Virus record (IMG/VR): IMGVR_UViG_3300042879_003909
Coordinates: 143,772-158,520 of that record
DNA length: 14,749 bases
Source: a virus
Taxonomy: Duplodnaviria > Heunggongvirae > Uroviricota > Caudoviricetes
Reading direction: 5' to 3' (one strand)
Of this stretch, positions 1,323 through 14,749 are shown piece by piece (the stretch's first letter is position 1; every line of letters starts with the position of its first letter). The notes under the pieces were generated by a model. The model saw nothing but the letters and a program-made list of their open reading frames with translations. It did not search any database and was not told the origin of the DNA. The translations under genes and the position numbers were made by a program.

Positions 1323-2204
<882 letters not shown>

Positions 2205-2232: not shown

Positions 2233-2260
2233 ATTATAACAATACTACTAGAGATATCAA
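2233..2260 (-). promoter_or_regulatory. sigma70-like promoter upstream of rIIB
   Basis: TTGATA-N16-TATAAT with TGn extension. Confidence 0.6.
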
Positions 2261-4173
2261 GATGCAAACTGAATATATTTTGCTAATTCTGAAATTATTT
2301 TATCAGAACAGCAACTACCATCATTAACAAATGTCAACAATGGATACTTTTCTAGAATTTTTTCTTCTAAAGTATCAATAGGATTTGTCGTAACAGTGAC
2401 ATTTGTATCATACAATTCAATAAACTTAATAGCATCTTTATTAACAGTTTTGCATAGCTCAACACTTTTAACAAAATCTTTAAACTCTGTAAAAGCATCA
2501 GGTAATACATTAGCAAGCCTACAGATTAGCCCGCTTCTTTCAGAAGAATTTTGGTCTCGTATAGGGTTTGCTTTCTTCAAATCTTCAATCATGCTTTTTA
2601 GATACTGATCAAGGCTAATCCAGCTTTTGTCGTTCAAGAATTCTTTTGAGTGTGCGAACTTAGATTTTATTCCAAATAGTTCAGTACCACTCATAAAGCT
2701 ACTTGTCATTAATTTTCTTAATCTATAAAAATTATTGTTAAATTGTCCACTGCTAACAATATCATTATTAAAAATTTCTACATAAATCTTTTGTTTAGCA
2801 GGAATACTTGTTGCACTGCATTCAATCCAAGCTGTTTTTTTGATTGAAGAGTTATTATATCTATAAACATATCCTTTCTTTACAGTCGCAGTAGTATTAC
2901 TGCGTTCTACTTTTGGTAAAGATGATGGATCACTAATAAACTGTGGCTCAATTCCTGCCTCCTTGATCTGATCTTCTGTAAAAACAGCAACTCTAGAATT
3001 AGTATCACGAACAAGATTTTTAATACGAGCAGAACAACCTTTAACATATTTAAATAGTTGCGAGTTTAAATTCAGGTGTGATGTATTAGTAGTCTGATAA
3101 CTAGATACACGACCTCTCGACGACTCATAAATTGTAAAAGAAGTCTTTGTATTCTTGAGAGAATATTTATCAGAAAGTTTGTCAATATAGGCATGACCAA
3201 ACATGTACCTAATACAATAGCCCTTTAGAATATTTTGTAATGCTAAAGCCTTCTCAAAATTTGTTGTTTTTGATTCAATGATATCTTCTACGTAAGATTT
3301 CATATTGTTTTTAATTAGTGCAATTTTTTCTTTAAGAGCGGCAATAGTCTTCTTGTCCATAGACAAATTTTCTCGCCCGGGATCAAAACTAAGCTCTCCA
3401 ATATTAAAGTAAAGATTAAAATCAATATCTAATCCTTCGCAATACTGGTGAGGAATAGTGTATGCAACATTTCCCATGACTGCATGCTGATAACCACTAA
3501 TGAAGTTTGCTTTAAACTCCGGCGTATCAATAGTATATTTCTTTTTATTATTTAATTTTTCTACTACGCTTGGAATATTGATATTAGGTAGTTTATTAAA
3601 AAAAGAATAAACATATTCCGCTTCTTCGCGGAAACTATCTATAGAGTTATTCTCAACATCTACGCTAATATTTAATCCGTTTGGTTCGTCCGTAGCTACT
3701 TCAGAAAGTAGGGCGATCTGAGGCTCACCATCTTCAGACTTATAGCAGCTATAGCTACGCTTAAAACCATTGTGATAGCTAACAACAGTAAAACTATCAA
3801 CTAAGCAAAAAGGAGATTTAGACCCAAGACCTAATGCTCCAATATAATCATTGGAATTAGTCTTTGTGCTATAGAAATATGTAGTAAATACTTCTCTGAT
3901 ATCTTGGTCAGACAGACCGATACCATAATCACGCACCGAGAACCAAGGTTCAATATGGGTAGGAAGATGAACATCGAATAGAGCATCATTGCCCGCTGCA
4001 ATATGTGCATCGTGTGCGTTGCAGCTAATCTCACGAATAACGGCCCGGATTTTATGGGTATAAATATTTGAACTAAGAATTTCGAAAGCCTTAGAGCTTG
4101 CCTGAATTTTAAAACCGCTGTTCTTGATAGAACCAGACACAATAACATCGCTCTTTGAATCGCCAATAATCAT
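2257..4173 (-). CDS. rIIA: rIIA-like protein with N-terminal GHKL/HATPase domain
   Basis: F.IQASSKAF.ILS..IY..KIRAV.RE.SCNA.DAH, VRDYGIG and IGALGLGSKSPF motifs; paired with rIIB; GAGG RBS. Confidence 0.85.
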   Translation of the reverse strand: MIIGDSKSDVIVSGSIKNSGFKIQASSKAFEILSSNIYTHKIRAVIREISCNAHDAHIAAGNDALFDVHLPTHIEPWFSVRDYGIGLSDQDIREVFTTYFYSTKTNSNDYIGALGLGSKSPFCLVDSFTVVSYHNGFKRSYSCYKSEDGEPQIALLSEVATDEPNGLNISVDVENNSIDSFREEAEYVYSFFNKLPNINIPSVVEKLNNKKKYTIDTPEFKANFISGYQHAVMGNVAYTIPHQYCEGLDIDFNLYFNIGELSFDPGRENLSMDKKTIAALKEKIALIKNNMKSYVEDIIESKTTNFEKALALQNILKGYCIRYMFGHAYIDKLSDKYSLKNTKTSFTIYESSRGRVSSYQTTNTSHLNLNSQLFKYVKGCSARIKNLVRDTNSRVAVFTEDQIKEAGIEPQFISDPSSLPKVERSNTTATVKKGYVYRYNNSSIKKTAWIECSATSIPAKQKIYVEIFNNDIVSSGQFNNNFYRLRKLMTSSFMSGTELFGIKSKFAHSKEFLNDKSWISLDQYLKSMIEDLKKANPIRDQNSSERSGLICRLANVLPDAFTEFKDFVKSVELCKTVNKDAIKFIELYDTNVTVTTNPIDTLEEKILEKYPLLTFVNDGSCCSDKIISELAKYIQFAS

Positions 4174-4214
4174 TTCTTTTACCTCAATAAGTCAAAAGTA
4201 AATACAACAACAAT

Positions 4215-4242
4215 AGTATAACTAGAAAGTTTCAGAAGTCAA
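4215..4242 (-). promoter_or_regulatory. sigma70-like promoter upstream of rIIA
   Basis: TTGACT-N16-TATACT overlapping the end of the HD gene. Confidence 0.55.
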
Positions 4243-4734
4243 GATGTCAAAAGCTTGTAAAAATTCTTCTTTTGCGTTTTTTGAAAAAAATAACTTTTCA
4301 GAAGATTTTGTTCCCCACAAAACTTTTTTCTCAACTTTGAGAATCTTTCTGTCGTACTTCTTGATTATAGCATTATGTACTTGGAAGTCAAGGTTAAATT
4401 TTTTTTCTATTACAGAATTCATTCTAGATTCTATATCCAAGTATTCTTTCAGGTGTTTTTTTAGAGGAGATACAATATCACCTAAATAAGCCTCGCTAGC
4501 ATCATGCATTAACAGTGCAAACAATACATCCCTGCCCGATATTCCATCAAACATAGCCATTTGAACCATGCCCAAGCTATGCTCTGCCACGCTATAGTCT
4601 TGCGGTGACTGAGCCCCAAAACGAGAAACTCTACTTAATCCATGAGCAATAGTTTGAATAGAAATCATTTCTTCAACAGGATTAATCAAATCAATTTTAC
4701 TACCATCGCACAAAGTAATACAGCTTTCGTTCAT
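4222..4734 (-). CDS. HD-domain phosphohydrolase, YfbR/5'-deoxynucleotidase-like
   Basis: IAHGLS...RF, YSVAEHS, LMHDASEAYLGDI..PLK motifs. Confidence 0.85.
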   Translation of the reverse strand: MNESCITLCDGSKIDLINPVEEMISIQTIAHGLSRVSRFGAQSPQDYSVAEHSLGMVQMAMFDGISGRDVLFALLMHDASEAYLGDIVSPLKKHLKEYLDIESRMNSVIEKKFNLDFQVHNAIIKKYDRKILKVEKKVLWGTKSSEKLFFSKNAKEEFLQAFDILTSETF

Positions 4735-5792
4735 TTTGCACCTAAATATTCATGAGAGTAACAAGTTCTAACGGCATCTATTTCTTTTCTTTTATCTTCT
4801 TTTCTAATTTTATCACCTTTTGGAATATATAAATAATCCTTTCTGGCTCGGCCATTTTTGCTAGTAGCTTTCCATAGTGGCGATCTATTTCTATACTCGC
4901 CCATTCTGGGGTGCGCGGTTTTAGAAAAATATCTATGTCCGCTATCAGTAAAAAGCTTTGCTATAAAATCAGAAAATCTAACGCCTATACCAAGCCCCTG
5001 ATAATCTGGCAATACTACTGTTCTATGTTCTCTCCAAGCATTTTTAACCGTACCACTAGGATAAGCTAAAGCAGAACCAAAAGCAATAGGTTTAGTGTCA
5101 TATAATCCCAAAAAACACCGGGCAGATTTATTTATTTTATCGTCTAAATAATGATGGTGCCTAAAAACTTCCCACCACTCGGTTGTGCAAGAGTAGATTT
5201 CGAGTTGTATTTCTGGTCTACTCCGAAGAGACCTCCTTGAAGTCAAAACTCCTGTTTGTGTGTCAAAAATCCAGTCTGGTTGTAGCCATTCAATAATATC
5301 GTAATGACAGGTAGAAAAAACTACACCTGAAATATTATTTTGTCTAATATATCTTTGTGTGGCATGACAACTACTTTTGGCCACAGTACGATCAATAACA
5401 CTGGTAAATTCATCTATTGATACATTGCTATCTAAAATTCTAGCAAGTCTTGCCCGGAATTGTTCTCCATTACTTAATACGTGAAAGGGTCTGCACCATG
5501 AAGGAACACTATTTAAACCAACAGCAGACAGTTTTTGTTGCTCTACTTGGCTAACAATAGCAAGTTCCGGATTCCAATCGGGATCATTTGTGATGCCATA
5601 ATAATGTTTTAATAGAGAGGTTTTACCGCTTCCGCTTGACCCTACAATGAGACCTATTGCCCAAGAATTATCTCTTTTAGGAGCATTAAAATCTGGCAGT
5701 TCAAATACGCTATTGCCGTTAAAATTATAATCAAATGGTTGAATAGCATTTATTAAATTTTCGTCTAGTTTAACAGAGGTATATAGTTTCAT
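4731..5792 (-). CDS. ABC-type ATPase fused to a C-terminal GNAT acetyltransferase
   Basis: Walker A GSSGSGKT, signature LSNGEQFR, Walker B IDEFTS, H-loop TCHYD; C-terminal R.VVLPDYQGLGIG acetyl-CoA motif; 4-bp overlap with the HD gene. Confidence 0.8.
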   Translation of the reverse strand: MKLYTSVKLDENLINAIQPFDYNFNGNSVFELPDFNAPKRDNSWAIGLIVGSSGSGKTSLLKHYYGITNDPDWNPELAIVSQVEQQKLSAVGLNSVPSWCRPFHVLSNGEQFRARLARILDSNVSIDEFTSVIDRTVAKSSCHATQRYIRQNNISGVVFSTCHYDIIEWLQPDWIFDTQTGVLTSRRSLRSRPEIQLEIYSCTTEWWEVFRHHHYLDDKINKSARCFLGLYDTKPIAFGSALAYPSGTVKNAWREHRTVVLPDYQGLGIGVRFSDFIAKLFTDSGHRYFSKTAHPRMGEYRNRSPLWKATSKNGRARKDYLYIPKGDKIRKEDKRKEIDAVRTCYSHEYLGAK

Positions 5793-5928
5793 GATTATGT
5801 TTCGTCAAAAATTCCAACCAAAGATATTCCCAGATTTGATTTCTGGTTTCTGTTCTTATTTGCCCCATGATTTTTGTAGAGACCTGTTTTCTATTTTGAT
5901 AGCCTACTTGACTTCTAACTGTTTTCAT
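5770..5928 (-). CDS. 52-aa degenerate Q-tetrad micro-ORF
   Basis: Hand translation MKTVRSQVGYQNRKQVSTKIMGQIRTETRNQIWEYLWLEFLTKHNHETIYLC*; overlaps both neighbours; N-terminus matches the QVxx family. Confidence 0.55.
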   Translation of the reverse strand: MKTVRSQVGYQNRKQVSTKIMGQIRTETRNQIWEYLWLEFLTKHNHETIYLC

Positions 5929-6094
5929 TTTCGTCTTTAAACTGATCCCAGACTTGGTCCCCGACTTGGTCCCCGACTTGGCTCCAGACTTGGTTCCTGA
6001 CTTGGCTCTCGACTTGGTTACTGACTTGGTTCCAGACTTGTTTCGTGGTTTGGTTCCAGACTTGGCTCCTGACTTGGATCTTAACAGTTTTCAT
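5915..6094 (-). CDS. 59-aa QVxx tetrad-repeat protein
   Basis: MKTVKIQVRSQVWNQ...QVWDQFKDENENS; true start is most likely ATG 6094 (ATGA overlap), not the GTG at 6151 used by the ORF track. Confidence 0.75.
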   Translation of the reverse strand: MKTVKIQVRSQVWNQTTKQVWNQVSNQVESQVRNQVWSQVGDQVGDQVWDQFKDENENS

Positions 6095-6155
6095 TTCTTG
6101 CTCCTGACTTGGTTCCCGACTTGGTCCCAGACTTGGTCCCCGACTTGGCACCTGA
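5945..6155. repeat. 12-bp tandem repeat tract (GACTTG-N6 on + strand)
   Basis: Units such as GACTTGGTCCCC, GACTTGGCTCCA, GACTTGGTTCCT. Confidence 0.95.
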
Positions 6156-6177
6156 TTTCATATTGAATCGGCTTCAT
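6091..6177 (-). CDS. 28-aa QVxx tetrad-repeat peptide
   Basis: Hand translation [28 protein letters not shown]; same SKK-ATGA junction as in the right-hand array. Confidence 0.55.
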   Translation of the reverse strand: MKPIQYEIRCQVGDQVWDQVGNQVRSKK

Positions 6178-6190
6178 TATACACCCGCAT

Positions 6191-6226
6191 AAAAAAAGGT
6201 ACAGTATATTTTACTATACTGTACCT
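6191..6226 (-). terminator. Rho-independent terminator after the DUF6745-like operon
   Basis: Perfect 12-bp inverted repeat AGGTACAGTATA/TATACTGTACCT (6197-6226), followed on the minus strand by a T run. Confidence 0.75.
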
Positions 6227-6236
6227 AATTTGTCAA
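6208..6236 (-). promoter_or_regulatory. sigma70-like promoter embedded in the terminator hairpin
   Basis: TTGACA-N17-TAAAAT; the -10 lies in the hairpin loop. Confidence 0.65.
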
Positions 6237-6250
6237 GTAGTAATTAAAAA

Positions 6251-6715
6251 TTAGTCGCGGGCTCGGCGTTCTCGCTCTAGTTCCTTATCATACTCACGCT
6301 GATAGGTGCATTCGATGATAAACCCAGCAGGAACAGTAACGTCTCCATGAGTTGGGTGTAGTACCGTTGTTTCAGAATTACAAACCAGTACTGGACCCTT
6401 CAAGGACTCTTCATTCCAAACTGGTGGTAAATAAACATCTACACCATTTAAAGATTTAAGACAGTGCTTTGCTCCCTCGGTATTACCAACAACAAGCTGG
6501 CGATTAACCTCGGAAAGCTTTTCTACTTTCTTGTAATCCTTTGGAACAGATGCGACAACAGTTAGTGCCAAGTCGCCCTGCCAGATACGATCACGCACAG
6601 TTGATGCCTCAGTAAAACGCACTGGGGTACCGGGCTTAACTGCTTCTTCGTTGTTAAGAACACGCTTCACAAAACTCTGGATTTCTTCAATTGCATTAAT
6701 AATTGCATTAATCAT
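6251..6715 (-). CDS. conserved hypothetical protein (QGD...H...QREY motif), usual neighbour of DUF6745-like genes
   Basis: WQGDL, G.TEG.KH, L.HPTHG.V..P.G and QREY....R..RD motifs; AAGAGG RBS; pairing recalled from other genomes, not searched. Confidence 0.75.
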   Translation of the reverse strand: MINAIINAIEEIQSFVKRVLNNEEAVKPGTPVRFTEASTVRDRIWQGDLALTVVASVPKDYKKVEKLSEVNRQLVVGNTEGAKHCLKSLNGVDVYLPPVWNEESLKGPVLVCNSETTVLHPTHGDVTVPAGFIIECTYQREYDKELERERRARD

Positions 6716-6727
6716 AATAACCTCTTA

Positions 6728-7618
6728 CTAAGTACGAGCCAAAACATTAAACTTTTCACCACCACCTAGCCAAACTTGAGCGTCTTCACATGTTTCAATG
6801 CTATCAGGAACGCCCAGAACAAACATTCTACCCGTTGGACAAGTTACAACAAGCCGATTGCCATAGTTTTCAGTATTATACAGTGCCTCTTTAGTATTTT
6901 CAATATCGTTATGACGATAATCTAAACATTTTGCACCGGATTCCTGTAGATATCTCGCCCAACCAAAACGATTAATCATAATGGCCCGGGCTTCATTATT
7001 GTTGGTAGCATTAATTTCCTCTACCGTCAACGTCTCTGGAGCCATAACAGTCTTTTCATTTAGTCTTACACCATCAATAGCCCAAACCTTGTATCCATCA
7101 CGATATGCAACGGCTGGACCATTTTCATTATGTAAACGAAATTGATCGTCTAAGTGAATCTCTGAATGCTTGTGCTGAAAAATAACACAGGTATCATAAG
7201 GAGCCCACCAGCCAACATTCTTGGCAATACCAATTAGTCCTTCTAGCTTGCGGCATTCTTCAACACCTAGCTCATTAAGAACATAATCATAATATCCTAG
7301 CCAGCCAGCTTCATGACTACCAAAAGTTTGATTATTTAATTCATCATAAACAGCAGAGCGATATCTCTCAGTATCCGACTCATTGACTTCTCCCTTGAGT
7401 TTAACCGCTAGCTTTGCAGCAGCAATCGGACTATCGGCTAAATAAAAGTTTTCTGGACAAACTAAACCAGCAGCTTCGTATGCAAGCCGGGCATACTTCT
7501 TGGCTTCTTCTAGGTTACACTCTCCGCAGTCAAGGCCAATATCGATCCACTTCTGCCGATACTTTGGCAACAATGCTTCTTGTTCTGGCGTTAGCTTGTC
7601 GATAGTCTTCTTACTCAT
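6728..7618 (-). CDS. DUF6745-like protein without an internal tetrad repeat
   Basis: LTPEQEA.LP.YR.KW..IG, DSP, GSHEAGWL.YYD, GWW.PY and RLHNENGPAV.YRDG..VW..DGV motifs. Confidence 0.8.
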   Translation of the reverse strand: MSKKTIDKLTPEQEALLPKYRQKWIDIGLDCGECNLEEAKKYARLAYEAAGLVCPENFYLADSPIAAAKLAVKLKGEVNESDTERYRSAVYDELNNQTFGSHEAGWLGYYDYVLNELGVEECRKLEGLIGIAKNVGWWAPYDTCVIFQHKHSEIHLDDQFRLHNENGPAVAYRDGYKVWAIDGVRLNEKTVMAPETLTVEEINATNNNEARAIMINRFGWARYLQESGAKCLDYRHNDIENTKEALYNTENYGNRLVVTCPTGRMFVLGVPDSIETCEDAQVWLGGGEKFNVLART

Positions 7619-7671: not shown

Positions 7672-7699
7672 ATTATACAATCTATTTATCGACTGTCAA
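7672..7699 (-). promoter_or_regulatory. consensus sigma70-like promoter for the DUF6745-like operon
   Basis: TTGACA-N16-TATAAT. Confidence 0.75.
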
Positions 7700-8160: not shown

Positions 8161-8199
8161 TTTAACATCGATGTAACTTTTGTCTACTCCACCAAAAAG

Positions 8200-8271
8200 A
8201 GGCCGATGGGGAACTCGAATCCCCTTAACTTATTTACGAAATAAGCGTTTTACCATATAAACTAAAAGGCC
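8200..8271 (-). tRNA. tRNA-Thr(CGT)
   Basis: Anticodon arm CTTAT-TTCGTAA-ATAAG; T-arm GGGGA-TTCGAGT-TCCCC; two acceptor mismatches. Confidence 0.85.
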
Positions 8272-8274
8272 AAG

Positions 8275-8303
8275 TTGGAGCGGGCGGAATCGAACCACCT
8301 ACC
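8275..8303 (-). pseudogene. tRNA 3' remnant (T-arm plus acceptor 3' strand)
   Basis: GGTA-GGTGG-TTCGATT-CCGCC-CGCTCCAA with no 5' half. Confidence 0.75.
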
Positions 8304-8306
8304 ACT

Positions 8307-8335
8307 ATTATAACAAGTATCTAGATAATTGTCAA
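8307..8335 (-). promoter_or_regulatory. consensus sigma70-like promoter
   Basis: TTGACA-N17-TATAAT with TGn extended -10. Confidence 0.8.
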
Positions 8336-8354
8336 GCTGATTATTTATTTTTAG

Positions 8355-8425
8355 TGCGAGTAGTCAGAATCGAACTGACGCATTTTCGTTGGCAACGAAA
8401 TATACTACCATTATATTATACCCGC
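8355..8425 (-). tRNA. tRNA-Gly(GCC)
   Basis: TTTCG-TTGCCAA-CGAAA; T-arm GTCAG-TTCGATT-CTGAC. Confidence 0.92.
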
Positions 8426-8438
8426 ATGTTTTGTTAAG

Positions 8439-8511
8439 TCCTCTCGTCCGGCACTGCCCCGGATTCCCCAATTTAAAAGATTGGTGATAATCTAGTTACA
8501 TCTCCGAGAGG
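8439..8511 (-). tRNA. tRNA-Lys(TTT), atypical D/T loops
   Basis: CCTCTCG/CGAGAGG; CCAAT-CTTTTAA-ATTGG; T-arm TCCGG-GGCAGTG-CCGGA. Confidence 0.8.
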
Positions 8512-8520
8512 TTATTTAAA

Positions 8521-8591
8521 TTATCCCGCCTAGATTCGAACTAGGGCCGTCATAGTCAAAGTATGAAGTGCTACCTTTACACTACGGGATA
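8521..8591 (-). tRNA. tRNA-Gln(TTG)
   Basis: TATCCCG/CGGGATA; TCATA-CTTTGAC-TATGA; TTCGAAT T-loop. Confidence 0.92.
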
Positions 8592-8592
8592 A

Positions 8593-8664
8593 TAGTCCCG
8601 CAGAGACTTCAACTCTGACAGGCATGGTAAGAGCATGCTATGCTAGCCGTTACATTACGGAACG
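8593..8664 (-). tRNA. tRNA-Lys(CTT)
   Basis: GCATG-CTCTTAC-CATGC; T-arm CAGAG-TTGAAGT-CTCTG; C1/U72 mismatch. Confidence 0.8.
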
Positions 8665-8666
8665 AA

Positions 8667-8873
8667 TTAATCACCATCATTAGTTGCCGGATAAAATACC
8701 ATATTTCTATTTTTACATACTGGGCATTTTTCTACAGATTTTTGTAAATATGGCGTAGAACCTTGAATATCGCTCATTTCATATTCTTCGGCCCTAGCTT
8801 CTGTTCCACAAATATGACATGTACCATACCATACTCTCTGGGGTAGTCTTTTACCCTTTTTGATGATTTCCAT
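8667..8873 (-). CDS. small zinc-ribbon protein
   Basis: CHIC...CPVC; ATG at 8873 (MEIIKKG) preferred over the TTG at 8888. Confidence 0.7.
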   Translation of the reverse strand: MEIIKKGKRLPQRVWYGTCHICGTEARAEEYEMSDIQGSTPYLQKSVEKCPVCKNRNMVFYPATNDGD

Positions 8874-8876
8874 CTC

Positions 8877-8904
8877 ATTATATCTCAATAAAAAAGAAAG
8901 TCAA
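8877..8904 (-). promoter_or_regulatory. sigma70-like promoter
   Basis: TTGACT-N16-TATAAT; the -10 is only 3 nt from the ATG at 8873, so its target is uncertain. Confidence 0.5.
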
Positions 8905-8907
8905 GCT

Positions 8908-9420
8908 CTATTTTATTTTTCTTCTTTTAATATTATGAGCTTTTTGAGCACATATTTTATTACAATATTTTTTATCTACCCTAACAGAGCACTCGAAATC
9001 GTTGTGACAAATTTCGCATTGTTTTAGATGTGTTTTAATTTCTACATTTTTAACATTAGAATCTTCTTCAAAATGAAGTTCTCTATGACAATTAGAACAT
9101 AATAAATCACATTTATCAAGTTCAATTTTTGTTTTTTCCCAAGACCTAGTTAGTCCTTTTTTACTTAATCCAAACTCTTTATCAGAAGACTCCCTATGAT
9201 GAAAATCTAATGCGGCAGAACATTTATCATAGCCACATTTTTGACACTTTCCGCCTTTATATTCTAAGGCTAATTGTTTTAATTTTAATCTTCTTCGATG
9301 AACAGCGTTGGTGCGACATTTTTTACATTTTCTTCTTTCTTTAGGAGTTCCAAAATTTTCTAAAGCAAATTCTGTTTCCCCATGTTGCTTACAAGTCCAT
9401 ATTATTGTTTTTTCTGGCAT
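8908..9420 (-). CDS. free-standing HNH endonuclease with Cys-rich modules
   Basis: GGKCQKCGY.KC..ALDFHH...KEF...ELDKC.LLCSNCHRELH; AGGAG RBS before ATG 9420. Confidence 0.9.
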   Translation of the reverse strand: MPEKTIIWTCKQHGETEFALENFGTPKERRKCKKCRTNAVHRRRLKLKQLALEYKGGKCQKCGYDKCSAALDFHHRESSDKEFGLSKKGLTRSWEKTKIELDKCDLLCSNCHRELHFEEDSNVKNVEIKTHLKQCEICHNDFECSVRVDKKYCNKICAQKAHNIKRRKIK

Positions 9421-9427
9421 ATATAAT

Positions 9428-9462
9428 CTCCTATACCTATATATACACAAAATGTATAGGTA
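9428..9462 (-). promoter_or_regulatory. RBS-sequestering hairpin with a candidate promoter motif in its loop
   Basis: CCTATAC (9454-9460) pairs with GTATAGG (9430-9436), which overlaps AGGAG; loop contains TTTTGTGTATAT. Confidence 0.5.
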
Positions 9463-9486
9463 GTAAGATTATTTTTATTTTACTAG

Positions 9487-9576
9487 CTCCGAAGTCAGGA
9501 TTCGAACCTGAATACCGTTCGAGACGGGTTACACAAAATTAACAGTTTTGCCGCTTTCCAATTAGCGTACCTCGGA
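9487..9576 (-). tRNA. tRNA-Asn(GTT) with long variable arm
   Basis: CAAAA-CTGTTAA-TTTTG; variable arm CCGT-CTCGA-ACGG; TCAGG-TTCGAAT-CCTGA; G73. Confidence 0.88.
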
Positions 9577-9607
9577 ATGTTTGGCTAACGTTGATCAGCC
9601 GATACAA

Positions 9608-9676
9608 TGCCTACAATTGGAATCGAACCAATCAATCCAGACTTATGAAATCTAGTTCTGCTCCAACAGCATAGGC
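9608..9676 (-). tRNA. tRNA(CAT) Met or Ile2, short and atypical
   Basis: TAGAT-TTCATAA-GTCTG; ATTGG-TTCGATT-CCAAT; reduced D-arm; 69 nt. Confidence 0.7.
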
Positions 9677-9681
9677 GTAAG

Positions 9682-9753
9682 TTGTGGATCATGGTATTGC
9701 ACCACACTCATTCGCGGCTTATGAGGCCGGAAGGATCACTTGATCTATCCACA
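9682..9753 (-). tRNA. tRNA(CAT) Met or Ile2, atypical
   Basis: TGTGGAT/ATCCACA; CGGC-CTCATAA-GCCG; T-loop TGCAATA. Confidence 0.65.
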
Positions 9754-9758
9754 ATAAA

Positions 9759-9829
9759 AGCCCCCAGCAAGAATCGGACTTGCTTTTCTAAATTACCAAT
9801 TTAGTGTTCTACCATTGAACTATAGGGGC
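9759..9829 (-). tRNA. tRNA-Thr(GGT)
   Basis: CTAAA-TTGGTAA-TTTAG; GCAAG-TCCGATT-CTTGC. Confidence 0.9.
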
Positions 9830-9832
9830 AAG

Positions 9833-9903
9833 CATGGGCGGACAGAGTCGAACTGTCGCTTACGATTTTGGAGATCGTTGTGCTACCGTAACACTTCGCC
9901 CAT
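9833..9903 (-). tRNA. tRNA-Trp(CCA)
   Basis: ACGAT-CTCCAAA-ATCGT; GACAG-TTCGACT-CTGTC. Confidence 0.93.
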
Positions 9904-9905
9904 GT

Positions 9906-9933
9906 ATTGTATCATTCTTTTACTCATTGTCAA
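9906..9933 (-). promoter_or_regulatory. sigma70-like promoter
   Basis: TTGACA-N16-TACAAT with TGn; the -10 is very close to the tRNA-Trp 5' end. Confidence 0.5.
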
Positions 9934-9934
9934 G

Positions 9935-10006
9935 TGCGTCTGCCCGGAATCGAACCGAGAACTTAAAGTTGGAAGCTTTTTATTTTACCGTTGAAACTAC
10001 AGACGC
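9935..10006 (-). tRNA. tRNA-Gly(TCC)
   Basis: GCGTCTG/CAGACGC; loop CTTCCAA; CTCGG-TTCGATT-CCGGG. Confidence 0.92.
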
Positions 10007-10010
10007 TTAG

Positions 10011-10162
10011 GTTTGTCTTTGTAACTTGCTCTAGCCAGCTTCGCTAGGCCGGATTGATGCCGTTTTCACTGTCGAATATTATATTCCATAGGGGCTCTCT
10101 TTTCACTGCCCGAAAGATATATTATTCATTTAAGTCACTTTTATTTATCCAGAAAGACAAAC
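10011..10162 (-). ncRNA. candidate structured ncRNA of unknown family
   Basis: 10-bp terminal stem GTTTGTCTTT/AAAGACAAAC plus GTGACTT/AAGTTAC, internal hairpins; fills the spacer between tRNA-Val and tRNA-Gly. Confidence 0.5.
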
Positions 10163-10165
10163 AAA

Positions 10166-10237
10166 TGGGCAATAATGGAATCGAACCATTTTCCTCTAAT
10201 TGTAAGTTAGAAATTTTAGCCATTAAACTAATCGCCC
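10166..10237 (-). tRNA. tRNA-Val(TAC)
   Basis: TCTAA-CTTACAA-TTAGA; AATGG-TTCGATT-CCATT. Confidence 0.92.
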
Positions 10238-10268
10238 TATATAAGTCGCCACTAGGAATGGACGACAA

Positions 10269-10340
10269 TGGATCGCTAGAGAATCGAACTCTACCAGATT
10301 GCTTGCAAAGCAGTCTCGCCCCCTTGGAACATGGCAACCC
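10269..10340 (-). tRNA. tRNA-Ala(TGC)
   Basis: GGGTTGC/GCGATCC with G3.U70; loop TTTGCAA; TAGAG-TTCGATT-CTCTA. Confidence 0.9.
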
Positions 10341-10509
10341 TTATTTTGCAGTCTCTCCCGCTGTGTTCCGTTCGGCATCACCCGTTGACCCTCTCTTACA
10401 ACCCCCATTCGGGAATAATAGTCCTTGAGGCACTTCATAACAACTTCACGGTCTTTTGCTTAAACTGAATATTTTCAGCATTTACCGATAGCATGTTTCG
10501 CATAAGCAG

Positions 10510-10582
10510 TGACGCGCACCGAAATCGAATCGGTGTAATATGGATTGAAAGTCCATACTGGGAAACCAACACCCTGCGCGCC
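10510..10582 (-). tRNA. tRNA-Glu(TTC)
   Basis: ATGGA-CTTTCAA-TCCAT; ACCGA-TTCGATT-TCGGT. Confidence 0.9.
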
Positions 10583-10590
10583 ATATTTTT

Positions 10591-10618
10591 ATTGTAACAG
10601 ATGATTTTAAGTTGTCAA
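10591..10618 (-). promoter_or_regulatory. sigma70-like promoter for the Glu-onward tRNA block
   Basis: TTGACA-N16-TACAAT with TGn; predicted start just upstream of tRNA-Glu. Confidence 0.75.
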
Positions 10619-10619
10619 G

Positions 10620-10639
10620 CGGAAGGTACACGATTCGAA
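10620..10639 (-). pseudogene. tRNA 3' remnant (Ser-like end)
   Basis: TTCGAAT-CGTGT-ACCTTCC-G, abutting the upstream region of the + strand endonuclease gene. Confidence 0.65.
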
Positions 10640-10685
10640 ATTAATATTTTTGTGTATATTATATTATACCAACAGGAGATATAAT

Positions 10686-11294
10686 ATGATATTTAAATGT
10701 ACTTTATGCAATAAAGATTTTGAAAGAAGCAAAAGAAATGCTTATATGAGCATTAAAAAAAATTGCAAGCCGTTTTGTTCAAAAACATGTTTTAACTCTT
10801 TTCAAACAACAAAACAACAAGTTTTGTGTAAAAATTGCAACAAAGCTTTTTATAAATTATTAAATCAAATCAAACAATCAAAAAATCATTTTTGTTCTAG
10901 GTCTTGTTCTGTTACTTATAATAATAAAAATAAGACAAAAGGAAACAGACGATCTAAACTAGAACAATATATTGAATTAAAACTTTCTGAAATATATCCA
11001 AATCTTCAAATATTATACAATAATAAAGAAGCTATAAAATCTGAATTAGATATCTATATACCATCTTTAAAATTAGCTTTTGAATTAAATGGAATTTTTC
11101 ATTATGAACCAATTTTTGGTGAAGATAAATTATCTAACATTCAAAATAACGATAATCGCAAATTTCAAGCTTGTTTAGAACAAAATATAGAACTTTGTAT
11201 TATCGACACTTCTTCACAAAAATATTTTAAAGAATCTTCTTCGGAAAAATTTTTAAAAATTATATGTGAAATTATCAACAAAAAAAATAATTAA
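10686..11294 (+). CDS. putative homing endonuclease: Cys-rich (CxxC/FCSxxC) modules plus a DUF559/Vsr-like PD-(D/E)xK domain
   Basis: ELDIYIPSLKLAFELNGIFHY motif; two CxxC...FCSxxC units; AGGAG RBS before ATG 10686; only convincing + strand gene in the window. Confidence 0.8.
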   Translation: MIFKCTLCNKDFERSKRNAYMSIKKNCKPFCSKTCFNSFQTTKQQVLCKNCNKAFYKLLNQIKQSKNHFCSRSCSVTYNNKNKTKGNRRSKLEQYIELKLSEIYPNLQILYNNKEAIKSELDIYIPSLKLAFELNGIFHYEPIFGEDKLSNIQNNDNRKFQACLEQNIELCIIDTSSQKYFKESSSEKFLKIICEIINKKNN

Positions 11295-11295
11295 G

Positions 11296-11377
11296 CGGAG
11301 AGTTGAGATACCGCCCCCCATGCTTTCGCACCAACAGTTTTCAAGACTGTGTCCACAACTTTGTGAATTAACTCTCC
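11296..11377 (-). tRNA. tRNA-Ser(TGA), probable 8/4 fold
   Basis: GGAGAGTT/AACTCTCC; 6-bp D-stem with 4-nt loop; ACAGT-CTTGAAA-ACTGT; variable arm TGC-GAAA-GCA; T-loop GGCGGTA; G73. Confidence 0.8.
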
Positions 11378-11438
11378 ATTTGCTACGGACGCCCGAAGAC
11401 GCCCGTGTTACTCACTGTACACTTGGTACATGAGCTAG

Positions 11439-11527
11439 CGGAGAATAATGGAATCAAACCATTACCGGGTTTTAAACCGGACGAATTTAGCAAATTCGCG
11501 TAGCAAATCAGTATCTACCTATTCTCC
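11439..11527 (-). tRNA. tRNA-Ser(GCT)
   Basis: CGAAT-TTGCTAA-ATTCG; long variable arm; G73; acceptor can extend to 8 bp (GGAGAATA/TATTCTCC). Confidence 0.88.
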
Positions 11528-11531
11528 AAAG

Positions 11532-11604
11532 CGACTCATAGGGTAATCGAAACCCTGCTTCAAGATCGACAATCTTGCGTCCTGCCCGTCTGGACCAATG
11601 AGCC
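11532..11604 (-). tRNA. tRNA-Asp(GTC)
   Basis: CAAGA-TTGTCGA-TCTTG; AGGGT-TTCGATT-ACCCT; G73. Confidence 0.92.
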
Positions 11605-11609
11605 AAATA

Positions 11610-11677
11610 AGAGGAAGAAGGGAGTCGAACCCTTTTAGCTTGTTTTGCAGACAAGCGCCCCACCTTGGGACAACCTC
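11610..11677 (-). tRNA. tRNA-Cys(GCA)
   Basis: CTTGT-CTGCAAA-ACAAG; AAGGG-TTCGACT-CCCTT; U73; short D-arm. Confidence 0.85.
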
Positions 11678-11680
11678 AAG

Positions 11681-11756
11681 CACCCCACACAGGAATCGAA
11701 CCCATTCTTACTAGTCCGTAGCTAGTCGTGCGAAAATTCCACTACACCAGTGAGGC
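11681..11756 (-). tRNA. tRNA-Arg(ACG)
   Basis: ACTAG-CTACGGA-CTAGT; TTCGATT T-loop. Confidence 0.9.
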
Positions 11757-11909
11757 ATATTCTTTTATTAACTCGGCCAATCTCTCGGCCTCTTCTTTTG
11801 TTAAAAGTATTCTAACCTGCTCTTCATTATTTGTCAACTGTAAAAGTATTCCATACGAATTTTTATTTACACCAACAAAATGACCAGATTCTAATTTTTT
11901 GCTAAACAT
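11742..11909 (-). CDS. 55-aa hypothetical protein
   Basis: Hand translation MFSKKLESGHFVGVNKNSYGILLQLTNNEEQVRILLTKEEAERLAELIKEYASLV*; AGGA RBS; 3' end overlaps tRNA-Arg(ACG). Confidence 0.65.
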   Translation of the reverse strand: MFSKKLESGHFVGVNKNSYGILLQLTNNEEQVRILLTKEEAERLAELIKEYASLV

Positions 11910-11930
11910 TTTATAATCCTATATAAACAG

Positions 11931-12004
11931 TAGTCCCAGTCGGAGTCGAACCGACAAACACTTCGTCCTAAGCGAAGCCGCTTTTCCAGTTTGCGTACAG
12001 GACT
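11931..12004 (-). tRNA. tRNA-Leu(TAG) with short variable loop
   Basis: CTTCG-CTTAGGA-CGAAG; 5-nt variable loop; GTCGG-TTCGACT-CCGAC; A73. Confidence 0.9.
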
Positions 12005-12111
12005 ATTTTTGGCCATGCTTAATGATTTTTGCTGATGGTCATTATACCTTGCTGACGCATTAATACAAGTCGAACAAAATATTTTTTCGCAGCTTTTTGT
12101 CCCAAGCCAAG

Positions 12112-12183
12112 CCGGTATTAATGGTATCGCACCACTCTCTTATGCTCTTCAGGCATACGCTAATCTATCTCAGCTAAATACCG
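12112..12183 (-). tRNA. tRNA-Phe(GAA)
   Basis: TATGC-CTGAAGA-GCATA; T-arm AGTGG-TGCGATA-CCATT. Confidence 0.82.
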
Positions 12184-12189
12184 ATAAAG

Positions 12190-12263
12190 GTGGAATGGAA
12201 AGAATTGAACTTTCGTAAGTTTTGTTCACAGCAAAACCCCCAAACCAACATGGGACAGTCCAC
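12190..12263 (-). tRNA. tRNA-His(GTG)
   Basis: G-1/C73 pair; TTTTG-CTGTGAA-CAAAA; GAAAG-TTCAATT-CTTTC. Confidence 0.88.
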
Positions 12264-12269
12264 ATAAAA

Positions 12270-12342
12270 TCTCACACGGCAGAATCGAACTGCATCCTCG
12301 ATACCCCAAATATCGCGTACAAACCATTATACGTCATGCGAG
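12270..12342 (-). tRNA. tRNA-Pro(TGG)
   Basis: CGATA-TTTGGGG-TATCG; GCAG-TTCGATT-CTGC. Confidence 0.9.
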
Positions 12343-12379
12343 TTAAAAAATACACAACCAAATTGTAAAAGATCGAAAG

Positions 12380-12452
12380 TAGTGCGTGACAGAGTTGAAC
12401 TGCCGTCTCTTGTGTATCAGACAAGGATACTAAACCGTTGTACTAACGCACT
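12380..12452 (-). tRNA. tRNA-Ile(GAT)
   Basis: CTTGT-CTGATAC-ACAAG; GGCAG-TTCAACT-CTGTC. Confidence 0.92.
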
Positions 12453-13293: not shown

Positions 13294-13438
13294 CTTTTAT
13301 GTAGTCTTTAAATCTATAAAATAGTAAAGATGGGAAACTTATTTTTTTTATAAAAAGGCTCCAGATAGGATATGATATGTGGCGATGAACGTCAATACCC
13401 TGTACGACCTCTCTTTGGAGCTTTTCTCTAAGTTTCAT
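13262..13438 (-). CDS. 58-aa micro-ORF
   Basis: Hand translation [32 protein letters not shown]...; overlaps both neighbours. Confidence 0.5.
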   Translation of the reverse strand: MKLREKLQREVVQGIDVHRHISYPIWSLFIKKISFPSLLFYRFKDYIKDDISNIRNQK

Positions 13439-13565
13439 TGTTCTTAGTCTTTAAAAAATCGTGAATAGCAATAAATGGCAATCTAAACATTATACGGCCA
13501 TCATAGTCGATAGTCATCCCAAATTCCCAAACAATTTTTTCTAATTTAAAATTAACAGTTTTCAT
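13428..13565 (-). CDS. 45-aa micro-ORF
   Basis: [45 protein letters not shown]; ATGA overlap with 13562-13744. Confidence 0.55.
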
Positions 13566-13744
13566 TTTTTGCTTACAACCTGACTCCTAATTCGATCTAT
13601 GGCTTGTATCCAGACTTGGCTCCAGACTTGGTCCCCGACTTGGCTCCAGATTTGGCTCCTGACTTGGATCAAGATTTGGTCCCCGACTTGGCTCCTGACT
13701 TGGTTCAAGATTTGGTTCCTGACTTGATTTTTGACAATTTTCAT
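13562..13744 (-). CDS. QVxx tetrad-repeat protein (60 aa)
   Basis: [16 protein letters not shown]...VVSKK; ATGA overlaps at both ends. Confidence 0.75.
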
Positions 13745-13947
13745 TTTTCGTCCCAGACTTGCTCGCAGATTTGGTTCCTGACTTGGTTCCAGACTTGGTT
13801 CACGACTTGGTATCCGACTTGGCTCCCGACTTGGTTCCCGACTTGGTCCCAGACTTGGCTCCAGACTTGGTCCCCGACTTGGCTCCAGATTTGGCTCCTG
13901 ACTTGGATCAAGACTTGGTCCATGATTTGATTCTTAGTTGTTTTCAT
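13741..13947 (-). CDS. QVxx tetrad-repeat protein (68 aa)
   Basis: [12 protein letters not shown]...QVWDEK; ATGA overlaps at both ends. Confidence 0.75.
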
Positions 13948-14102
13948 TTCTTGCTCACGATTTGGCTCCCGACTTGGCTCCAGACTTGGCTCCTGACTTG
14001 GTTCAAGATTTGGTCCCCGACTTGGCTCCAGACTTGGCTCCAGACTTGGTATCCGACTTGGCTCACGACTTGGGCCCTGACTTGATTTTTGACAATTTTC
14101 AT
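13944..14102 (-). CDS. QVxx tetrad-repeat protein (52 aa; absent from the ORF track)
   Basis: [52 protein letters not shown]; ATGA overlaps at both ends. Confidence 0.75.
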
Positions 14103-14329
14103 TTTTCGTCCCAGACTTGCTCCCAGATTTGGTTCCTGACTTGGTTCCAGACTTGGTTCACGACTTGGTATCCGACTTGGCTCACGACTTGGGCCCTGAT
14201 TTGATTCCAGACTTGGTTACTGATTTGGTTCCTGACTTGGCTCACGACTTGGCTCACGACTTGGTTACTGACTTGGTTCCAGACTTGATTCATAGCTCGA
14301 TGCCTGACTTGACTGCTGACAGCTTTCAT
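14099..14329 (-). CDS. QVxx tetrad-repeat protein (76 aa)
   Basis: [16 protein letters not shown]...QVWDEK; ATGA overlaps at both ends. Confidence 0.75.
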
Positions 14330-14508
14330 TTTTCGTCCCAGACTTGGCTCCTGACTTGGAACCTGACTTGGCTCCTGACTTGGTCCCAGACTTGGCTCCT
14401 GACTTGGTCCCAGACTTGGTTCCCGACTTGGTTCCAGACTTGGTTCCCGACTTGGTTCCTGACTTTGCTCAAGGCTTGGCTCCAGACTTGGTAAATAAGT
14501 GATTTCAT
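14326..14508 (-). CDS. QVxx tetrad-repeat protein (60 aa)
   Basis: [11 protein letters not shown]...QVWDEK; ATGA overlaps at both ends. Confidence 0.75.
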
Positions 14509-14675
14509 TTTTCGTGCCTGACTTGCTTCCAGACTTGGTTCCCGACTTGGTTACTGACTTGGTTCAAGAATTGGTTCCCGACTTGGATCATGACTTGGTA
14601 TCCGACTTGGCTCACGACTTGGGCCCTGACTTGATTCATAGCTCGATGCCTGACTTGACTGCTGACAGCTTTCAT
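14505..14675 (-). CDS. QVxx tetrad-repeat protein (56 aa; absent from the ORF track)
   Basis: [56 protein letters not shown]. Confidence 0.75.
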
Positions 14676-14749
14676 TTTTCGTCCCAGACTTGGCTCCTGA
14701 CTTGGAACCTGACTTGGCTCCTGACTTGGTCCCAGACTTGGCTCCTGAC
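14672..14749 (-). CDS. QVxx tetrad-repeat protein, 5' end beyond the window
   Basis: ...[25 protein letters not shown], identical to the end of 14326-14508. Confidence 0.7.
   Translation of the reverse strand, partial: VRSQVWDQVRSQVRFQVRSQVWDEK

Follow-up and report, generated by a model that had tools for sequence, protein, structure and literature searches.

The final 14.7 kb of the 158.5-kb IMG/VR virus record IMGVR_UViG_3300042879_003909 (a stretch of 14,749 nt, positions 143,772 to 158,520, referred to here as the window) carry a gene of the DUF6745 family, a partner gene and small open reading frames (ORFs), the micro-ORFs or mini-genes, which encode peptides with Gln-Val-x-x (QVxx) tetrads. 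Comparison of the sequences indicates that the repeat of these micro-ORFs is the free-standing form of a hypervariable (Q/S)Vxx tract found within about half of DUF6745 proteins. In our best explanation, to which we give a probability of about 0.5, this tetrad tract is a variable element that would be delivered in trans, by the peptides of the mini-genes, to one DUF6745 core.

The DUF6745 gene (positions 6728-7618 of the window, minus strand) is a repeat-less allele encoding 296 amino acids (aa). It matched Pfam PF20530 with 101.4 bits (cut-off 27; E value 5.3e-29), and with 101.7 bits in a six-frame search of the genome; the 158.5-kb record holds this single, tract-less copy. Two alignments showed that the conserved motifs of the family are present, namely LTPEQ...W..IG at the N-terminus, DSP (residues 62-64), G.H[DE]A.W (here GSHEAGW, residues 100-106), CGWW and LHNE.GPA..Y.DG. 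The partner gene (6251-6715, minus strand) lies 13 nt past DUF6745 and encodes 154 aa with QGD...QREY motifs. It is followed on the same strand by micro-ORF1 (6091-6177, 28 aa, MKPIQYEIRC-(QVxx)4-SKK), micro-ORF2 (5915-6094, 59 aa from its ATG, MKTVKI-(QVxx)n-QFKDENENS) and micro-ORF3 (5770-5928, 52 aa), which presents a MKTV head, a degenerate period-4 Q/K/E-V/I pattern and a non-repeat tail. Micro-ORF1 and micro-ORF2 overlap by 4 nt (ATGA), micro-ORF2 and micro-ORF3 by 14 nt, and micro-ORF3 and the downstream 353-aa gene by 23 nt. The original prediction, made earlier on this DNA, had listed a DUF6745-like gene, a QGD...QREY partner and three QVxx micro-ORFs of 28, 59 and 52 aa, and all of them are present. 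It had also described the DSP-to-GSHEAGW interval (residues ~62-106) as a non-repetitive linker, which alignment with tract-bearing homologues bears out. In the AlphaFold2 model of the protein (predicted local distance difference test, pLDDT, of 82), the tract insertion point corresponds to a helix-loop-helix formed by helices 64-75 and 83-95.

According to the original prediction, many homologues carry a variable QVWDQVRxQV-type tract between the two motifs, and scoring the DSP-to-G[QS]H interval of aligned homologues for tetrads verified it. Among 120 close-to-moderate homologues, the closest (about 60) are without a tract and 10 more distant ones contain 5-27 QVxx units; by alignment, these lie exactly between DSP... 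and G.H[DE]A.W, that is, between the N-terminal helical part and the C-terminal domain of the protein. Of 32 viral loci, 16 contain an internal period-12 array (QVxx, SVxx or mixed). When 1.84 billion representatives were searched with a profile, 16,291 family members were obtained (E ≤ 0.001, clusters at 50% identity), and 76 of the 150 best representatives exhibited a tract, counted as at least 5 consecutive period-4 V/I/L positions and reaching up to 52 units, of the QV type in 43 of these 76 and of the SV type in 16. Tetrads of the (Q/S)Vxx kind are then found between DSP and G.H.A.W in about half of these best representatives. The tract is a frequent and not a defining feature, absent from the window gene as from about half of the family. 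Its length runs from 5 to more than 50 units, and reaches about 700 aa in locus L011 and about 1,100 aa in L012. The related loci were found with the narrower alignment A2, the broad alignment A1 being too diverse; a search for related loci with the single DUF6745 protein gave no matches. A nucleotide search of the locus against GenBank phages returned no match, and the protein search two distant matches only.

The internal tract (PF20530; phrog_31813) and the mini-genes share the (Q/S)-V-x-x pattern of period 4 and variable length, W/R/G at position 3 and D/S/N/A at position 4, and a 12-bp unit with homogenised third codon positions. They differ in that the mini-genes, of which there are some 18-20, are separately encoded, measure 24-76 aa and each possess a start, a head and a tail, whereas the DUF6745 protein of this genome is tract-less.

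Some related loci present other arrangements of the same parts. The DUF6745 genes at L011:7622-10675 and L012:6380-10654 encode 1,018 and 1,425 aa (stop-to-stop), with degenerate tetrads in the middle of the protein and the partner present. At L045:9318-10954 a short DUF6745 gene (209 aa) and a full-length one (317 aa) form a tandem pair, accompanied by the partner but by no array; the short gene is similar to those of the group L026-L036 (204-213 aa), which lack the C-terminal domain. A 399-aa viral protein (L064:1191-2387, minus strand) has a sub-threshold match to a Macro domain (E 0.013), then a QVxx/QIxx tract and a short C-terminal part, and is possibly a different host protein for the same tract.

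In the window, Tandem Repeats Finder detected the 12-bp repeat in 16.6 copies at 5951-6148 and in 95.6 copies at 13609-14749, the unit being CAA GTC NGG NNC on the minus strand. The motif CAAGTC-N6 repeated four times was counted 82 times on the minus strand, against none on the plus strand and none in a backwards control, which is far beyond chance. Repeat clusters occupy record positions 1-777, 3504-4073, 4513-4761, 149722-149913 (the locus beside DUF6745) and 157384-158506 (window 13.6-14.7 kb). The second QVxx locus that had been proposed at 13.5-14.7 kb is, then, present, and it is only part of a larger set of clusters. This large array (13562-14749, minus strand) contains six complete ATGA-chained micro-ORFs of 52-76 aa (14505-14675, 14326-14508, 14099-14329, 13944-14102, 13741-13947 and 13562-13744), and a seventh runs off the window; the array extends into record positions 1-800 and 3477-4796. 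A terminal ORF of 45 aa with a MKTV head and no repeat (13428-13565, minus strand) is ATGA-coupled to the last repeat ORF. A homologous tail shared by this ORF and micro-ORF3 was considered and dropped, the DNA aligning only over 16 nt in the ATG-head region.

The record contains 18 complete micro-ORFs of 24-76 aa with at least 3 consecutive tetrads, and the family numbers about 18-20, in agreement with the earlier claim that the repeat module has been amplified as free peptides. Nearly all of them have a MK[ATSI]V head and a [DE]EK or SKK tail, and the TGA of one overlaps the ATG of the next at the junction GAAAAATGAAA; such stop/start overlaps would allow translational coupling. Head, (QVxx)n, tail, ATG/stop frame and chained overlap are found together throughout, in micro-ORF3 only in degenerate form. 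No consensus promoter-like site was found directly 5' of the large arrays. A 122-bp block spanning a junction occurs three times, at record positions 1-122, 158053-158174 and 158399-158520 (the latter two being window 14282-14403 and 14628-14749), which makes recombination among the mini-genes themselves evident. As the 122-base direct terminal repeat (DTR) annotated by IMG/VR lies inside the 12-bp array and is this triplicated block, the label 'complete, DTR' may be an assembly artefact of the repeat.

The reading frames argue that the micro-ORFs are genuine genes rather than bare DNA repeats. The 12-bp arrays could instead be non-coding repeats (iterons, packaging or recombination signals, or assembly-prone satellites) in which the small ORFs are incidental, and the codon pattern is indeed odd: the CAAGTC hexamer and the third codon positions hardly change, and the variation falls on positions one and two of both x codons (R/W/G, then N/S/D), while in the plus-strand reading (xPDL) the main variable base is the synonymous third position of Pro. 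The arrays are, in addition, located at both ends of the record, with the 122-bp 'terminal repeat' inside them. However, ATG and stop are reset at every unit only in the minus-strand QVxx frame, and the xPDL reading was rejected because the plus-strand frames wander across three different peptides. Each lineage has its own heads, tails and overlap geometry, which are conserved inside it: MKNLK...KKDLK with an overlap of -4 in L010, MNSVS...DTEKNE with -8 in L043, MQIKREQV...REDLWDAN with -11 over ten consecutive copies in L044, and a MKSVK head with -14 in L016. The synonymous codons behave in the same way, Gln being CAA or CAG, Val GTC or GTT and the fourth codon ending in C, T or G depending on the lineage and uniformly within it, with Gln-Val kept; this points to selection on the peptide and concerted evolution on the DNA. 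Moreover, QVxx tetrads stand in frame inside DUF6745 proteins, the same ones in thousands of proteins, and the translated repeat of gp54 from mycobacteriophage Tweety (Tweety gp54) shows the same 'odd' codon pattern. A non-coding reading of the arrays is therefore highly unlikely. Still harder to credit is that the chained ORFs yield one long repeat protein through programmed -1 slippage at the A-rich junction GAAAAATGAAA. Every junction in this genome reads A AAA ATG A, where a tRNA-Lys could slip back one base at the stop, but in other lineages the overlaps measure -8, -11, -14 and -17 nt, the junction sequences are unrelated and the frame shifts the other way, so that slippage cannot be the general mechanism. 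No slippery site is conserved at the junctions across lineages, and each unit has its own ATG with a purine-rich stretch upstream. In L044, ten chained QVxx mini-genes of 63-99 aa within 2.7 kb (L044:3548-6252) were left uncalled by the public gene calls.

The contig L165, from another sample, carries the same locus and allowed the rate of change of each part to be compared. DUF6745 and the partner are each 93% identical between the window and L165, the upstream gene is 81% identical and the 73-nt intergenic promoter/hairpin region 88%, against 36, 47 and 35% for the peptides of micro-ORF1, 2 and 3. Micro-ORF1 has 61 aa in L165 (28 here) and micro-ORF2 has 64 aa (59 here), and the three-ORF layout and both ATGA junctions are retained. 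The combination of fast peptides and a retained layout indicates that the mini-genes are the fast-evolving part of a conserved cassette, constrained to stay translatable. The peptides evolve much faster than their neighbours, through slippage of the 12-bp unit and point changes at the first and second positions of both variable codons.

Free arrays were found to adjoin repeat-less DUF6745 genes in at least 20 other viral contigs. In L010, L043 and L044 (proteins 62-65% identical) the order is DUF6745, partner and QVxx micro-ORFs, as in the window; L043 and L044 have a second, larger array about 5 kb away, and L045 (51% identical) has none. Arrays flank the gene on both sides in L015 and lie upstream in L016, and in L017 a free RVxx ORF ends 35 nt ahead of the repeat-less gene. 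No free array was seen beside the tract-bearing allele in 16 tract-bearing loci. A naive count gives arrays in 5 of 17 repeat-less against 0 of 16 tract-bearing loci, which are not phylogenetically independent.

The same arrangement was recovered by a scan of IMG/VR for five CAAGTC hexamers at 12-nt spacing, which gave at least 118 stretches, of which 80 loci were read. Internal tracts accounted for 11 of the 80, and in 13 a DUF6745 frame of 288-303 aa has a small-ORF array at a distance of 28-714 nt, with the partner in 12 of these 13; as an exception, the stop-to-stop DUF6745 frame of L046 and L082 measures 372-383 aa, running on from the partner frame. All three records at least 63% complete with bona fide arrays (G001, G002 and G004) hold an open frame of about 297-304 aa, the length of a repeat-less gene, and in each a same-strand array follows it immediately; further clusters are found 5-40 kb away in G001, G004 and G008. 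G005 (172 kb, complete) was at first a candidate for an array without DUF6745 and was rejected, since it holds unrelated Q-rich repeats. A same-strand array thus stands next to a repeat-less DUF6745 gene in the window, L010, L043, L044, L015, L016, the 13 pattern loci, G001, G002, G004 and G008. The recurring layout is a repeat-less DUF6745 gene, usually with its partner, an adjacent same-strand array, and larger arrays elsewhere in the genome. The association of repeat-less alleles with free arrays that the original prediction anticipated therefore exists in many viral contigs, usually together with the partner.

A maximum-likelihood tree was built from the conserved parts of 37 rows with the tract columns removed, and was midpoint-rooted. 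The window gene, L044, L010 and L043 form a group sister to L045, and the whole is sister to the giant-tract pair L011/L012 (100 in the Shimodaira-Hasegawa-like approximate likelihood ratio test). L015, L016 and L013 are sister to the tract-bearing L021-L023, and L017 stands apart on a long branch. The well-supported branches require at least two changes of the free-array state, the free-array lineages being nested among tract-bearing ones. Since tract-bearing forms occur on both sides of the midpoint root, which is not an established root, it is simpler to suppose that the tract was lost and free mini-genes appeared. The nesting, seen at least twice, fits the earlier proposal that the module was split off, and the direction of change depends on the midpoint rooting. 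On this topology, the split layout would have arisen independently at least two or three times.

The DNA around the locus contains candidate signals for its expression. A sigma-70-type promoter-like site (7672-7699, minus strand; TTGACA-16-TATAAT, 12/12 consensus) lies about 54 nt 5' of the DUF6745 ATG, and a terminator-like hairpin with a 12-bp stem and T7 (6197-6226, minus strand) is placed 25 nt beyond the partner stop. A further promoter-like site, TTGACA-17-TAAAAT (6208-6236, minus strand; 11/12 consensus), has its -10 hexamer within the hairpin loop, and its transcript would begin just 5' of micro-ORF1. Both this site and the hairpin are kept in L165. Judged from these predicted signals, DUF6745 and its partner resemble an early-type operon, and the small array seems to have its own near-consensus promoter-like site.

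The partner has the invariant residues QGDL, H84, H120, H123, Q139, E141, R150, R151 and D154, and its model (pLDDT 80) predicts an N-terminal helix and a beta-rich domain. No Pfam, PHROG, PADLOC or NCBIfam family was found for it. Its homologues adjoin DUF6745 in L010, L011, L012, L023, L043, L044, L045, L165 and most of the pattern-scan loci, upstream in some lineages and downstream in others. It is also found beside tract-bearing DUF6745 genes (L011, L012, L023, L048, L062 and L085). The original prediction had proposed a three-part system of DUF6745, partner and tetrad peptides; the partner does accompany the split form, but is not specific to it. As it is common to split and tract-bearing lineages, the DUF6745/partner pair is better seen as a conserved core and the peptide genes as an add-on of the tract-less forms.

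The binding of a free peptide to this core was modelled by co-folding DUF6745, the partner and the 59-aa peptide of micro-ORF2, with the peptide as the scored chain. The score was 0.55 (runs of 0.53, 0.55 and 0.75), compared to 0.01 for the best control, and dropped to 0.00 once an unrelated protein took the place of DUF6745 with the partner still present. At least 57% of the contacts agreed between runs and the pLDDT of the peptide was at least 55; no interface was reported. The mark applied is reached by 58 of 80 solved complexes and by 2 of 110 mismatched pairs, and scores of 0.60 or less include 7 of the 80 complexes together with both mismatched pairs. The model raises the odds of docking in trans only modestly, and we hold the chances that the peptides dock on the DUF6745 core to be about even.

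Under the explanation that we favour, the tetrad segment would be a variable specificity or spacer element of a DUF6745 machine. In the split form, a panel of differing peptides from the many mini-genes would dock on the single conserved DUF6745 core, which could then be combined with many peptide variants. By analogy with Tweety gp54, the arena would probably be early host takeover or counter-defence.

The peptides might instead act alone, as helical decoys, inhibitors or scaffolds against a host factor and with no DUF6745 complex, their place near DUF6745 being due only to their origin by fission of its tract and to later amplification. This alternative, although we doubt it, is a substantial one. 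It would account for the distance of most copies, kilobases from DUF6745, with second clusters 5-40 kb off in G001, G004 and G008, for the promoter-like site that the adjacent array has of its own behind the terminator-like hairpin, and for the repeat-less DUF6745 genes that exist without arrays; the weakness of the co-fold result is also in its favour. It leaves aside, however, that nearly all records examined have one array immediately behind DUF6745 and in the same orientation, that no free array was seen beside a tract-bearing allele, as expected if the peptide replaces the tract and not if it is independent, and that the co-fold score is lost when DUF6745 is exchanged. A recombination reservoir had also been suggested; in this reading the arrays would be donor cassettes whose tetrad tracts are copied into DUF6745, or swapped among themselves, to diversify it. 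Identical junction-spanning blocks in the arrays, such as the 122-bp block present three times (record 1, 158053 and 158399), and third codon positions homogenised within a lineage imply frequent recombination or slippage among array members. But no 11-mer is common to the arrays and the DUF6745 or partner gene, the gene has no acceptor tract here or in any close relative, and conserved ATG heads, charged tails and overlaps bearing Shine-Dalgarno sequences would be superfluous in cassettes. With no shared sequence to work on, a reservoir for DUF6745 is very unlikely here. Competition of the peptides with an internal tract, another of the earlier suggestions, is moot in this genome, whose single DUF6745 copy is tract-less.

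Delivery of the peptides in trans to the DUF6745 core has, for its part, several observations to contend with. Most micro-ORFs of this genome are located 6-13 kb from DUF6745 and do not adjoin it. No free array was found within 10 kb of the repeat-less genes of L013, L014, L018, L038, L045 and the short-form group, and the module is therefore not obligatory for the core. In 52 of the 80 pattern loci, DUF6745 is absent from the fetched stretch; most of these are fragments and some hold unrelated Q-rich repeats, and whole-record searches of 13 of the 52 revealed, in 5 of them, an open frame as long as a repeat-less gene (293-305 aa). The pass in the co-fold was classed as weak support, and because tract-fused DUF6745 proteins are abundant, the model may replay a remembered fused form, as it may for the halves of a split gene; the earlier suggestion that the peptides supply the module in trans is weakly favoured by the score over its controls and tempered by this possible memory. 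Foldseek against the PDB gave no match at E ≤ 0.001 for either protein, the best VIA-align Z was 4.6 for DUF6745 and 3.5 for the partner, and the partner had no profile match to PDB sequences; neither fold has a credible counterpart among solved structures in these searches, which point to no biochemical activity. Nor did PADLOC, NCBIfam or PHROGs supply a function for the proteins of the locus, and look-ups in the ESM Atlas returned only viral clusters without names. Finally, gp54 is not homologous to DUF6745, which leaves an analogy of design only.

Among described systems, Tweety gp54 comes closest. In the middle of the protein, 15-48 tetrapeptides follow one another, each combining two fixed residues with two variable ones, G/W in the third place and S/Y in the fourth (PMC2884959); 40-48 Ala-Ala-x-x units lie between the unique N- and C-terminal regions of gp54 (PMC2884959; PMC9262239). 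The third codon positions of the repeat are invariant and the first and second variable, from which Pham et al. infer selection for variation (PMC2884959). The gene is non-essential, lies in the early region and differs in repeat number between phages (PMC2884959; PMC9262239), and escape mutants that beat the Phrann gp29/gp30 defence differ in gp54 repeat number (PMC9262239). The 12-bp repeat, the two fixed and two variable residues and the invariant third positions are as in the mini-genes, a resemblance and not a membership, whereas the fixed residues are Ala-Ala instead of Gln-Val, and the gp54 repeat is always internal, with no free-standing mini-genes described. Homology to DUF6745 of the N- and C-terminal domains that flank the gp54 repeat was rejected: there is no Pfam family for gp54, and hhalign of the DUF6745 alignment A1 against it gave a probability of 0.04. 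A further non-essential phage gene with an in-frame tandem repeat of variable copy number, from a 2007 paper known to us through its citation, has, as cited, a repeat unit of 24 bp and not a tetrad, with neither a split form nor a relationship indicated there. In a full-text literature search, DUF6745 and the characteristic peptide strings were not mentioned in any paper found.

Downstream of the micro-ORFs, the 353-aa protein (4731-5792, minus strand; phrog_11143, E 1e-106) begins with a P-loop/ABC-like part and ends in a GNAT acetyltransferase part. Further on are a 638-aa HATPase_c_3 protein (2257-4173, minus strand) and a 293-aa protein (1323-2204, minus strand) whose C-terminus is a poly-Asp run encoded by a (TCA)16 repeat at 1348-1397. 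The order of the 638-aa and 293-aa genes matches that of the rIIA-like and Phage_T4_rIIB genes beside DUF6745 in L043, L045 and the P0019 contig, and points to a T4-type early region. The window also contains tRNA genes at 281-352 and 8199-12452 (minus strand), 20 according to ARAGORN and 14 according to Rfam, the Rfam tRNA at 12112-12183 being absent from the ARAGORN list; the tRNA cluster sits between the DUF6745 locus and the large array. The tRNAs Gln-TTG (CAA), Arg-TCT (AGG) and Trp-CCA (TGG), as well as Gly-TCC (GGG), Asn-GTT (AAC) and Asp-GTC (GAC), fit the dominant codons of the mini-genes, which with 20 tRNAs may be a coincidence. Amid the cluster, two Cys-rich genes may be mobile endonuclease genes: the one at 10650-11294 (plus strand) matches the zf-FCS zinc finger (E 2e-7), and the one at 8908-9450 (minus strand) exhibits a HNH-like CxxC...H...CxxCH pattern, judged by eye.

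With 16,291 cluster representatives at 50% identity, mostly from phages, the DUF6745 family is very large, and its tract bears the codon signature that in Tweety gp54 has been read as selection for variation, in a protein whose repeat number tunes counter-defence. The mini-genes, for their part, represent a class of real small genes that is systematically skipped by gene callers. The split form separates the variable element from the core and thereby makes the system amenable to experiment, since each of the two can be produced, exchanged or used in pull-downs on its own. In its most complete version, the proposal is of a modular system of DUF6745, partner and tetrad peptides, in which a rapidly diversifying set of about 20 helical peptides, expressed together, would arm the core in trans and lend it a combinatorial specificity against host defences, reached by repeated fission of the tract; in this complete version we consider it tentative and rather unlikely. 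If it were true, such a system would be a protein-level counterpart of a variable-region repertoire, reached independently several times, and if the peptides do arm the core in trans, viruses would have in it a new route to a repertoire of variants.

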